In this document: positions 1-4,351 of the stretch, piece after piece
How the letters are laid out: each line of letters opens with the position of its first letter
Numbering within the stretch: position 1 is the stretch's first letter
From: an uncultured Chloroflexia bacterium
GTDB lineage: Bacteria > Chloroflexota > Dehalococcoidia > SZUA-161
DNA length: 64,000 nucleotides
Assembly: GCA_963847595.1 (NCBI GenBank)
Contig: CAWKAJ010000003.1
Coordinates: 36,979-100,978 of the forward strand
Direction: 5' to 3'
Translations under genes and position numbers: made by a program
The notes under the pieces: model-generated
What the model was told of the DNA's origin: nothing
The model's input: only the letters and a program-made list of their open reading frames with translations
Database searches by the model: none

Positions 1-37
1 GTTGAGCTTGACGCTCAGGGTTTACCCATTTGGGCAT
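1..37 (-). CDS. hypothetical protein, 5' end only (runs off window): MPKWVNPERQAQ...
   Basis: ATG at 37-35 on the minus strand, preceded by purine-rich GAGAGAGGGGGGGAT. Open frame to the window edge, same orientation as 112..633. Only 12 codons are visible. Confidence 0.45.
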   Translation of the reverse strand, partial: MPKWVNPERQAQ

Positions 38-51
38 ATCCCCCCCTCTCT

Positions 52-80
52 CTCAAGCCCTAATGGGGGATATACGCTTA
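52..80. repeat. inverted repeat, left copy (CTCAAGCCCTAATGGGGGATATACGCTTA)
   Basis: Reverse complement matches 659-689 except for G/C-run length (5 vs 7). Confidence 0.9.
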
Positions 81-111
81 TGTAGTGTTACTGGTTCGCT
101 ATCGGTTCGGG

Positions 112-633
112 TTATGCTGGTACTGGTTCGGGTTGGGCTTCGGTTTGGGGGGCTTCGCTTTGGGCTTCGGCCTTGTCTTGACGTGCTAACGCTTCGGCCA
201 TAGCTTCGGCCATAGCGTTATTGATGGCTACTCTATCGGCCTCTCTGATGGGCTTGCCAGCCTCTATACTAGCACTCACTTCGGCCTTGTATGCTTCGGG
301 TTCGGACTTGCGGACTGTTGCGCTGAAGTGCTGAAGGTTCGCTATAAAGTTCTCCCGAACCATCTTGACACCTTCGCCCAGTTCCTTCGCCACCCTAATA
401 ACGGGCTTGCCCGTATTGGGGTTAAACTTCGCAACTCCATCCTTGCCATACGCTAACCGAAGCGGTGCGCCTAAAGCTTCGGGGGGTATCACGGTTTTAC
501 CCATCACGTTAGAGGCGGTGAAAAATGGTAGCCAAACAGTCTCAAGGTCAACACTCCAAACCTTGCGCCCTTGCGGTTTGCTCGGTGCAGGATTGAGCAA
601 CATCGCAATATATTCGGGGGTTGTTATCTCCAT
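112..633 (-). CDS. hypothetical protein (173 aa), probably accessory-element encoded
   Basis: Long ORF with SD-like AGAGAGG upstream, globular-looking N-terminus and Ala/Glu/Pro-rich tail. No recognised motif. Confidence 0.8.
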   Translation of the reverse strand: MEITTPEYIAMLLNPAPSKPQGRKVWSVDLETVWLPFFTASNVMGKTVIPPEALGAPLRLAYGKDGVAKFNPNTGKPVIRVAKELGEGVKMVRENFIANLQHFSATVRKSEPEAYKAEVSASIEAGKPIREADRVAINNAMAEAMAEALARQDKAEAQSEAPQTEAQPEPVPA

Positions 634-658
634 ACGCTTTACCTCTCTCTTTTAGATT

Positions 659-689
659 TAAGCGTATATCCCCCCCATTAGGGCTTGAG
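659..689. repeat. inverted repeat, right copy (TAAGCGTATATCCCCCCCATTAGGGCTTGAG)
   Basis: Complementary to 52-80. Lies in the 5' leader of the 173-aa gene. Confidence 0.9.
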
Positions 690-719
690 TATGAATGACT
701 CACTAACTCACTTTCAGCC

Positions 720-806
720 TATCCCTTGCCAGTTCTAGGGGCTTGTGCCCTATTCCTTATAAGGGATTGACCTAATCGTTCGGGTTAGCTACCCATCAAG
801 GTCAAG
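720..806 (-). other. structured upstream leader (two adjacent stem-loops)
   Basis: ATCCCTT(721-727)/AAGGGAT(761-767) and TTGACCT(767-773)/AGGTCAA(799-805) pairings. No family recognised. Confidence 0.35.
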
Positions 807-1076
807 TCATTTTTTGTTAAGGTTCTTTGCTATGCGAAGCTATTTAGCTTCTCAATTCATAGCTTTGAGGATAGGATACTTTACAAAAGTACCTTTTGTA
901 TATGAAAAGAAGTAGCTAGTTCTTCAATTGAAGCTAAAAATGCTATTTTTTGTGAAAGTTAGCTTCGGAAGTTGGGAAATTGAGGTAGATTCAGTTAAAA
1001 CCTTGTCAACGGAACTCAGGATGAGCAGCAGCTATCGGCTCTGCCCAGGCCAGCGCCCCCGCTCGCCCCTGAGAGG

Positions 1077-1316
1077 TCAACGAGTGAAACACTCGCTGCT
1101 GGAGAGAACCATACCAAGCGGGTTTGCGCTTCGCTCCGCGCCGCACCAAACCGGGGATGGGGAACCAGTGGCCGGTGATTCAGTCAGCAGGCCCTTCTTC
1201 TCAAGGCTCTGTGCGATTTGGTCGAAGTCTTCAACGGGGTCCCGCTGCAAGAACTTCTCACGGGGCAGCCTGGGAATGATGTTCACGATGCCCATCAAAA
1301 AATCCCATCCATCCAT
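1077..1316 (-). CDS. small hypothetical protein, gene A copy 1 (79 aa; C-terminal half possibly degenerate)
   Basis: SD AGGAG upstream and TTGACA at 1360-1355. The 5' end is homologous to the remnant at 2902-2999. Confidence 0.45.
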   Translation of the reverse strand: MDGWDFLMGIVNIIPRLPREKFLQRDPVEDFDQIAQSLEKKGLLTESPATGSPSPVWCGAERSANPLGMVLSSSECFTR

Positions 1317-1368
1317 GTGGGACTCCTGTTTTAAGCCTACCGCTTTTTAACCGATGTCAAATAGCCTC

Positions 1369-1739
1369 CTGTGGTTCGCCGAAATGCGCCGTCCAGGAGC
1401 GTCCAGATTTCAAAAGAATGGGCAAATGACGACTTCACGACTTGGACACAGAAACTGAAAAGTCCTAGGACTTTCGACTCCCAAAAGTCCAAAGTCGAAA
1501 AAGTCGTCATGAACGTAGGGGGCCGCCGAAATGTCGTTTACCATGCCCGCAAACCCACTCAAATGGCCAACAGAGGTTTGGACTTTTAGCTTCAATTACG
1601 ACGTCGTCAAGACATCTACCACGACGTCGTCAGTAGTAATACCATCCTCCCCATGGCAAGTATAGTTATCCCTTGAAGCTGTGGTTTGCCGAAATGCGCC
1701 GTCCAAATGCGTCCAAATCCGTTCAAATGGCGGACGGAT
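1369..1739. repeat. repeat block R, copy 1 (~370 bp, direct terminal repeats, internal palindromes)
   Basis: 1369-1605 is near-identical to 2493-2729 (offset 1124). Terminal motif CTGTGGTNNGCCGAAAT at 1369 and 1679. Palindrome AAAGTCCTAGGACTTT at 1459-1474. Confidence 0.9.
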
Positions 1740-1885: not shown

Positions 1886-2036
1886 TGATATCAGATCATG
1901 AGATCAGGGCGGATAGGGTCGTGATATCAAGTATGAAATCAGCGGAGGCAAGGGACTGATATCAAACCATGAAATCAGCACAGGCAAGGGCATGATATCA
2001 AACCATGAGATCAGCATAAAGGAGGTCATGATATCA
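1886..2036. repeat. tandem array, 35-36-bp period, core TGATATCA-N4/5-TGA(A/G)ATCAG
   Basis: TGATATCA at 1886, 1922, 1957, 1993 and 2029. Extra copies at 1758, 2206 and 2897. Confidence 0.9.
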
Positions 2037-2048
2037 AAAATAGGTCGC

Positions 2049-3523: not shown

Positions 3524-3812
3524 AAGTCACAATAGAGCCTATTTCATAAAGCGAGTTCTCTGAGAAAGGTGGCAAAGAAGGCTAGCCTAACGAGGTAGCG
3601 GGCTAACCTTTTCTGTGCCGTGAAATACACTATTCTCTAAGCGACGGCAGCGAGTCGCTTGACCCAAAGTTCGACTCCGAGTACTATGATACCGGATTCT
3701 AGTGTTATTGTCGGTGGCGATTGCTCATCCCAGAATGACACAGAGACGTAGGGATGTGCCCAGACATAGTAGTGCTCCCACGATTGGGGATGCAGGGCGT
3801 TGCAAAGAGATG

Positions 3813-3888
3813 CAGGACACTTCCTGCCGGGGGTTTGGGGGATACCCCCAAACCCCAAGTCCCCCAAGACTGGGGGATACAGGGGGTT
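3813..3888. repeat. REP-like GC-rich palindromic element
   Basis: GGGGTTTGGGGGATACCCCCAAACCCC and TCCCCCAAGACTGGGGGA hairpins. Similar G/C-run hairpins occur near 14850-14910. Confidence 0.6.
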
Positions 3889-4351
3889 GAAATAAGTTGC
3901 TAAACGCTCTCGTGTAGAGTGTATGGTAATTTAGGTGTGGGGGAGGTGTTGAATGGGTAGTATTCAAAAATGCTCTATATTTTCAATCCCCGCTTTCTCC
4001 AGGATATCCTCTATACGGTCAACGTGCTCGAAAAAGATACTGCTCCGCACATAGTCAAAGCGGGGCCGAATCTCTCGATTTCGTTCGCTTCTTCTTAAAC
4101 CGCCTTCGGAGCCTCTTTCGGTACCGACCTCAATTGCTCTTTGGTCAGTGTTTTCGAGAGAAATGGCCAAAACCATTATGTAGTTAGTTGATTGGTAATT
4201 GCGTCACCCGATTGACATCTAGGTTAGGTCAACTCAATGTTAGGAAGCTTCAAGTAAGAGACTGGCCATTGAAAACTTGAACCTGATTTTTGAGCTATTG
4301 ATATTCCCTCGATTGTGATAAAATACAGTGAAACAATCAGGAGAATAAGAA

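Follow-up and report, generated by a model that had tools for sequence, protein, structure and literature searches.

A conserved long-range mRNA helix around the first cistron of a Chloroflexota gene pair and its possible role as a translational switch

Long-range pairing in bacterial mRNAs is, to our knowledge, represented by a handful of cases, which have been studied singly and nearly all of which are repressive. The processing stems of rRNA are likewise long-range duplexes and are targets of RNase III, and in the RNA phages MS2 and Qbeta the coat and replicase cistrons are coupled by ribosomes that, on the upstream cistron, melt an inhibitory pairing. In hok/Sok-type mRNAs, with their tac/fbi fold-back, and similarly in the aapA mRNAs of Helicobacter pylori, one 5′ element can pair locally as a metastable hairpin while the RNA is nascent, or with a distant 3′ segment once it is full-length, and the choice between them sets the access to the start site (PMC9841398; PMC6733600). 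In the icaR mRNA of Staphylococcus aureus, an anti-Shine–Dalgarno motif in the 3′-UTR pairs with the Shine–Dalgarno (SD) sequence in the 5′-UTR, affecting initiation and making a substrate for RNase III (PMC3868564). Bacillus subtilis RNase III cuts mRNAs within long-range duplexes that span hundreds of nucleotides (PMC11780869), and in RNA phages distant pairing controls the ribosome binding site of the downstream cistron in a polycistronic RNA (PMC2978339).

The locus considered here comes from an uncultured Chloroflexota bacterium with a genome of 2.98 Mb in three contigs; the whole stretch that was analysed, 64,000 nt long (G000:C3:36979-100978), is called the window. Two genes lie in tandem at its start (Table 1), and the arms of an inverted repeat that flank gene 1, upstream (U) and downstream (D), would pair on the minus-strand mRNA as a helix of about 30 bp that has the first cistron of the bicistronic mRNA wholly inside it. 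This resembles hok and aapA in that one 5′ element would form a transient local hairpin and would have a distant 3′ partner in the full-length RNA; in hok, however, the 5′-3′ pairing locks the message and 3′ trimming opens it, whereas the folds predict that in this locus the starts are opened by the long pairing. Unlike hok, moreover, the enclosed ORF does not code for a small membrane peptide—its product of 173 aa has a conserved, soluble-looking sequence, without the features of a small hydrophobic toxin ORF—and the 3′ partner lies in the intercistronic spacer, where it also touches the second cistron. With icaR the locus shares an intramolecular pairing that spans the whole ORF, but in icaR the SD of the same gene is the target of the 3′ motif, to repressive effect, whereas here the partner of the D arm is a leader segment upstream of the gene 1 SD (SD1), ending at about −26, and the pairing would relieve sequestration. 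The RNase III target stems have in common with this helix that two segments separated by hundreds of nucleotides form a long duplex around a functional unit; the passages cited on the B. subtilis stems (PMC11780869) report no competition with start-site hairpins of the kind described here. As in MS2 and Qbeta, distant pairing is linked to the start of a downstream cistron in a polycistronic RNA; unlike in these phages, neither arm is translated here and the paired state is predicted to be the permissive one.

Table 1. Coordinates of the paired arms, start sites and genes in the window
Feature	Position	Strand	Description
Gene 2 start	1..37	minus	AUG 37-35; 226 aa, 'MPKW..PERQ' family
Gene 2 translation initiation region (TIR2)	35..46	minus	G run/SD 46-40, AUG 37-35
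Downstream arm (D)	52..80	minus	in the gene 1-gene 2 spacer; first base 31 nt past the gene 1 stop, last base 14 nt short of AUG2
Gene 1	112..633	minus	173-aa ORF, start 633, end 112; wholly inside the helix
Gene 1 translation initiation region (TIR1)	632..649	minus	purine tract/SD 649-642, AUG 633-631
A/U-rich 'AAUCUAAA'-type motif	650..658	minus	adjoins the U arm on its 3′ side; leader hairpin loop
Upstream arm (U)	659..689	minus	in the 5′ leader; ends 25 nt before AUG1

A long-range helix conserved on the mRNA strand

The initial annotation had described the two arms as reverse complements, and this holds, the sole difference being a G/C run of 5 versus 7; a repeat finder returned the matching arms as 52-74/667-689 and 65-80/659-674. 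When the outer 18 nt of the repeat are sought in the window with up to 3 mismatches, there are 2 matches, both of them arms, against 0.05 expected (0/100 shuffles with at least 2 matches); the inner 16 nt also match only at the two arms, in what is a weak test (0.41 expected; 5/100 shuffles with at least 2). The local complementarities that had been claimed, of 667-660 with 639-632 and of 73-65 with 44-36, can equally be read from the sequence. There is also a real gene starting at position 37, the ORF of which extends past the window start to about 36336 of the contig (G000:C3) and the family of which follows gene 1 on the same strand in 92/93 loci. Across the host genome, with 4730 ORFs of at least 100 aa, a flank complementarity score of at least 44 is reached by just 8 ORFs: six are gene 1 paralogs, all of which keep the inverted repeat with compensatory changes, and the remaining two are flanked by a palindromic hairpin or REP-like repeats.

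This pairing was followed through the relatives of gene 1 by scoring how far the 100 nt that precede the start codon are complementary to the 100 nt that follow the stop. A first set of 65 collected loci contained 43 unique ones, of which 35 were testable, i.e., had an intact gene of at least 150 aa and at least 100 nt on each flank; loci at contig ends without a flank (L019, L023, L040, L046, L068) and those with a broken gene (L053, L067) were left out. All 35 have cognate arm complementarity (score 27-60, median 51; 35/36 if one includes L063, an excluded 208-aa ORF with homology only over the N-terminal 113 residues, no repeat and a score of 12), as compared with a mean of 14.5 and a maximum of 25 for non-cognate pairs among 16 arm classes (n=1068) and a mean of 14.1 and a maximum of 28 for shuffled flanks. 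An independent set built from metagenomes, from the best 80 of at least 321 relatives, scored at least 39 in 58/61 testable loci. The exceptions are L141, which is 5′-truncated, and L101 and L130, in which the D arm is kept next to an unrelated 5′ region. The latter two, which also keep gene 2, would serve as natural 'U-arm deletion' cases but might be rearrangements or chimeric assemblies. With the sets pooled, an inverted repeat of 23-44 nt is found at the same relative places in 93/97 testable loci; these 93 fall into 20 arm classes with unrelated sequences, and their cognate scores (27-63) stand against a non-cognate maximum of 25 (n=6846).

In an alignment of 18 close relatives, both sides have changed in 8/29 helix pairs versus 2.5 ± 1.1 after shuffling (0/500 as high), and 90.4% of the cells are paired, a figure that falls to 13.8-63.1% when the partner is slid. 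For the long-range duplex, the compensatory changes expected of homologs under the initial annotation are present, as covariation on the mRNA strand, and are far stronger than that annotation could know. RNAalifold returned 0 pairs on a MAFFT alignment of 31 whole messages because the unrelated arms are misaligned in it. A search of the 19 kb around the locus against Rfam at the gathering threshold gave 0 matches, and no description of the element was found in open-access papers and bioRxiv. The long-range mRNA helix is real and is strongly conserved by covariation.

The imperfections of the repeat also tell on which nucleic acid it acts, in that a transition mismatch between the arms can be a G.U pair on one strand only. 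The unique transition mismatches of the first set are G.U on the mRNA strand in 29 cases versus 9 on the other (p=0.0008), the events new to the metagenome set in 34 versus 12 (p=0.0008), and all of them together in 63 versus 21 on the antisense strand (p=2.5e-6), although these events need not all be independent by descent. Colinearity holds for all 93 loci; among short contigs of relatives at 80% likeness there was no strand-changing joint and some crossed the arm boundaries colinearly, a test too weak to weigh on either side. The repeat therefore acts in RNA, on the mRNA strand, and not in DNA.

An element working at the DNA level—an invertible segment, as the initial annotation had offered as its alternative, terminal repeats like those of transposons, or a pair of protein-bound operator sites—would account for a gene flanked by inverted repeats at a locus that is multi-copy in the host genome. 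It is, however, very improbable: gene 2 stays downstream on the same strand in 92 of the colinear loci, the arms differ wholly between lineages and yet remain complementary, and the bias of 63:21 toward one strand is unexpected from DNA recognition. In addition, the homology among the paralogs, from about −819 to about 1114, reaches well past both arms, with a constant neighbour gene; since sequence conservation in the six paralogs continues on the far side of each arm, the arms are not the ends of a mobile unit. Given colinear loci and the strand-specific G.U bias, the main explanation is thus neither an inversion of DNA nor a transposon end nor a paired operator.

Local partners of the arms at the two start sites

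Each arm of the helix has a possible local partner, and the better conserved of these is in the leader. When the leader of the window is folded alone, 639-632 pairs with positions 667-660 of the U arm (MFE −16.0), and 3/3 bases of the AUG are paired to the arm. Across 16 lineages the duplex energy of the U arm with TIR1 is −14.2 for cognate versus −10.2 for non-cognate combinations (p=0.0002; p=1.5e-5 against shuffled arms), and in the larger set, of 20 lineages, it is −14.7 versus −10.2 for shuffled arms (p=1.9e-6), 29/93 loci being individually at or below 5%. The leader MFE is −19.1 versus −15.3 (p=7.6e-5), and by a loose criterion the 3′ part of the U arm pairs with AUG1 and/or SD1 in the leader alone in 34/35 loci, where 26.0 are expected with shuffled arms. 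The motifs through which this occurs vary by lineage, e.g., CAUACGC/GCGUAUG, CCAUGCG/CGCAUGG and an SD-covering CUUCACC/GGUGAA type. Cross controls of the U arm against TIR2 and the D arm against TIR1 were null, the latter with p=0.49 against non-cognate pairs and p=0.14 against shuffles. Compensatory changes had been anticipated for the local hairpins too: the pairing of the U arm with AUG1 does recur across lineages in different sequences, but among the window's close relatives both hairpins are nearly invariant and give no covariation signal (121/500 shuffles as high). These comparisons show the leader hairpin, i.e., the 3′ part of the U arm on SD1/AUG1, to be a conserved competitor of the long helix.

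The A/U-rich 'AAUCUAAA'-type motif in the loop of this hairpin is kept in most lineages despite their unrelated arms, and may be a standby or S1-binding site. A promoter scan of window positions 1-1200 found none, and a −10-like 'yATAr' stands just 5′ of the U arm in only about 10/16 lineages, as judged by eye. Upstream of the arm, at 690-770 on the minus strand of the window and in other loci, a GGCC-GAAA-GGC-type tetraloop hairpin, 'TATAAGG', 'GAATAGG' and, adjoining the arm, the 'yATAr' box recur; these motifs might reflect a promoter or further structure of the leader.

The second hairpin, at the start of gene 2, has a narrower distribution. In the spacer of the window folded alone, 44-36 pairs with 73-65 of the D arm (MFE −19.1), and the D arm is far better matched to TIR2 than expected (L010, the window's locus: cognate −24.8 versus a shuffled mean of −12.1; 0/200 shuffles as good). 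The hairpin is strong in the window, and likewise in lineages 0 and 1 and in L016. Across lineages it gives p=0.25 against non-cognate pairs and p=0.064 against shuffles, in the larger set p=0.055, with 14/45 loci individually significant, mostly from lineages 0 and 1, and in a test of the spacer MFE p=0.11; in folds of the spacer the start site is paired to the arm in 28/31 loci versus 20.6 expected with shuffled arms. The proposed pairing of the D arm with SD2/AUG2 is therefore significant in the window's lineage and a few others only; the second hairpin is not general. An in-frame AUG within the D arm was considered as an alternative start of gene 2 and rejected, being open in a few lineages and out of frame or closed elsewhere, by inspection only.

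The gene pair, its products and its genomic setting

Neither the gene 1 nor the gene 2 protein has a match in Pfam, PHROGs, NCBIfam or PADLOC. Their AlphaFold models have pLDDT values of 70.5 and 83.0, and with them Foldseek found no match in the PDB at E ≤0.001; a wide VIA fold search with the gene 2 protein reached a best Z of 5.0 without a convincing match, and an ESM Atlas search gave no usable match. A predicted complex of the two proteins scored 0.56 versus 0.00 for the best control, with at least 91% of contacts agreeing between runs and a partner pLDDT of at least 69. The mark used for this score is reached by 58/80 solved complexes and 2/110 mismatched pairs; among those passing, values up to 0.60 include only 7/80 solved complexes and both of the mismatches. 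On this modelling the two proteins may, tentatively, bind each other.

Relatives of gene 1 carry the labels Chloroflexota, Dehalococcoidia or Chloroflexia (24 loci), and occur in 8/25 genomes of the family, the host genome included, and in 11/401 sampled genomes of the class. Of the 587 pattern matches listed from metagenomes, no fewer than 321 code for a relative, and sediment metagenomes are among the sources of relatives. Viral contigs yielded no relative, and a search of sequencing runs for the locus returned no RNA runs, its matches being sediment and peat metagenome contigs, a small share. In the host genome itself the region from about −819 to about 1114 exists in six copies with 80-85% identity.

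Just outside the window start (G000:C3:24000-36978), on the same strand and downstream of the gene pair, lies a cluster coding for Prok_Ub/PRTRC_C, Prok-E2_D/PRTRC_B, Prok-JAB and ThiF proteins, together with a beta-clamp-like protein of 513 aa and an HTH_17/AbiEi_4 protein. These neighbours, i.e., the PRTRC-like ubiquitin/E2/JAB/E1 cluster and the beta-clamp-like and HTH proteins, suggest that the gene pair resides on mobile DNA. Of the five further paralogous copies, just one has the long region with the Prok_Ub/E2/JAB/ThiF cluster.

Several repeats are seen in the vicinity of the pair. A direct repeat of 251 nt with 95% identity (window 1355-1605 and 2479-2729) contains no convincing ORF, and partial copies of it adjoin other gene 1 paralogs on contig C1. 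Upstream of the gene pair, window positions 1898-2040 hold four head-to-tail units of 36 nt of the ATGArATCAG...GATATCAA type, which are iteron-like, while positions 3777-3912 hold a REP/MITE-like element of about 90-130 nt that is rich in G and C runs; the latter has more than 40 matches over all three contigs, and inverted copies of it flank C1:285706-286122. In L016, L021 and L043 a homologous ORF ('..RGG..P...G.FI..YL..NG..') lies on the same strand about 480-1000 nt upstream of gene 1; such an ORF is found in several lineages and leaves 360-650 nt as the non-coding leader region.

Energetics, the proposed switch and its significance

In the window, the U:D duplex is predicted at −49.8 kcal/mol, whereas the leader folded by itself reaches −16.0 and the spacer −19.1. 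When the 673-nt message is folded, its MFE structure contains the helix and so does its centroid (−237 kcal/mol, z = −5.7). Partition functions give 24.8-36.9 expected U:D pairs in 34/35 loci, the exception being L041 with 13.7 of 23. By these calculations the long helix would be dominant in the full transcript, being thermodynamically preferred over the local folds. The predicted effect on the start sites is unequal: TIR2 is unpaired with a probability of 0.34 when the leader is missing and of 0.62 in the complete RNA (13 lineages, p=0.0002), and for TIR1 the probability goes from 0.34 in the nascent RNA to 0.45 in the complete one (16 lineages, p=0.002). The earlier proposal that the long helix frees both starts accordingly fares well in prediction for TIR2 but finds only a modest gain for TIR1. 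At these values of 0.45 and 0.62 the pairing is not predicted to sequester the SD as a hok-like pairing would, the 5′-3′ pairing itself being a feature in common.

The geometry of the helix is constrained as well. The U arm ends a median of 26 nt before AUG1 (−21 to −29 in 66/93 loci), the D arm starts a median of 9 nt after the stop (+5 to +12 in 59/93 loci) and ends a median of 15 nt before AUG2 (12-17 in 28/45 loci). These spacings bear on the notion that the helix is a passive stabiliser, which hides the 5′ end or insulates the cistron and so slows decay, with the local hairpins as by-products and no switch at all. Were transcription to begin at the arm, the duplex would indeed conceal the 5′ end; a −10-like element adjoins the arm in several lineages, and ORF-centred structural units have been described in operon mRNAs (PMC5318159). 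A stabiliser would need neither fixed distances to AUG1, the stop codon and AUG2 nor a conserved complementarity between arm and start site, and we regard this explanation as unlikely.

The reading that is preferred here is a conformational switch in cis that makes translation of the two cistrons depend on an intact bicistronic RNA, and its chances may be put as roughly even. The elements of such a switch would be the long helix and its alternative partners, namely SD1/AUG1 for the 3′ part of the U arm and, in the window's lineage, SD2/AUG2 for the C-rich centre of the D arm. During transcription the leader hairpin would form early and shut the first start site. Once the spacer has been transcribed, the free 5′ half of the U arm might nucleate on the D arm—in the window, judging by the folds, on the loop of the second hairpin—whereupon the far more stable long helix would zip and leave both start sites single-stranded. 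From this order of zipping it would follow that both proteins are made only from RNAs that contain the leader as well as the intercistronic spacer, i.e., a gate for completeness or stoichiometry. We infer the order of these steps in time, their consequence for translation and what the switch is for in the cell from the pairing patterns and predicted folds described above.

A duplex of 23-44 bp is long enough for RNase III, and the main rival of the switch is that the helix serves mainly to be cut, as a processing stem that excises the gene 1 message from the bicistronic RNA. Cutting would give the two cistrons different stability or translation, and the released halves of the arms could refold and close the starts, so that the element would be a timer or a shut-off rather than an activator. 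The dimensions of the duplex are in keeping with this, as it is formed by distant segments and measures 23-44 bp across loci (median 31, mean −56.2 kcal/mol), at least about two helical turns; the host genome also encodes an RNase III (TIGR02191, 238.9 bits, above the cut-off). Precedents are seen in the passages cited on the B. subtilis enzyme, which cuts mRNAs in long-range intramolecular duplexes (PMC11780869), and on icaR, where the 5′-3′ pairing is likewise an RNase III substrate (PMC3868564). On the other hand, a processing stem by itself provides no reason for the 3′ part of the U arm to stay complementary to SD1/AUG1 across lineages, and central bulges are inconsistent, with perfect helices in some lineages. 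It is a possibility we consider rather less than probable as the main function; it partly overlaps the switch, and the two readings are not exclusive.

A bolder version of the cis switch would see one helix as a shared anti-sequestor of two starts, a cis 'AND gate' with the first cistron as a closed loop, and this we put forward as a speculative extension that is doubtful as it stands. If it were true, a single helix end would have the stop of the looped first cistron about 9 nt away and the AUG of that cistron about 26 nt away, and the SD of the second cistron would be placed beside the 5′ leader. It would then be the first activating pairing between the 5′ region and an intergenic region of an mRNA that covariation preserves throughout a bacterial class, and would give bacteria an analogue of the closed-loop mRNA.

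The comparative proof available for this helix is unusually clean, since arm sequences of about 20 unrelated kinds are on hand and the G.U bias is strand-specific. The helix encloses a whole cistron in a phylum rich in uncultured members and is connected with one start site at the least, in some cases with two. Its natural sequence variants offer a test bed for how an mRNA might verify that it is complete before being translated, and a design lead for synthetic two-gene gates. For the Chloroflexota themselves, the RNA element may provide a handle on a widespread gene pair without family match that is probably carried on their mobile DNA.
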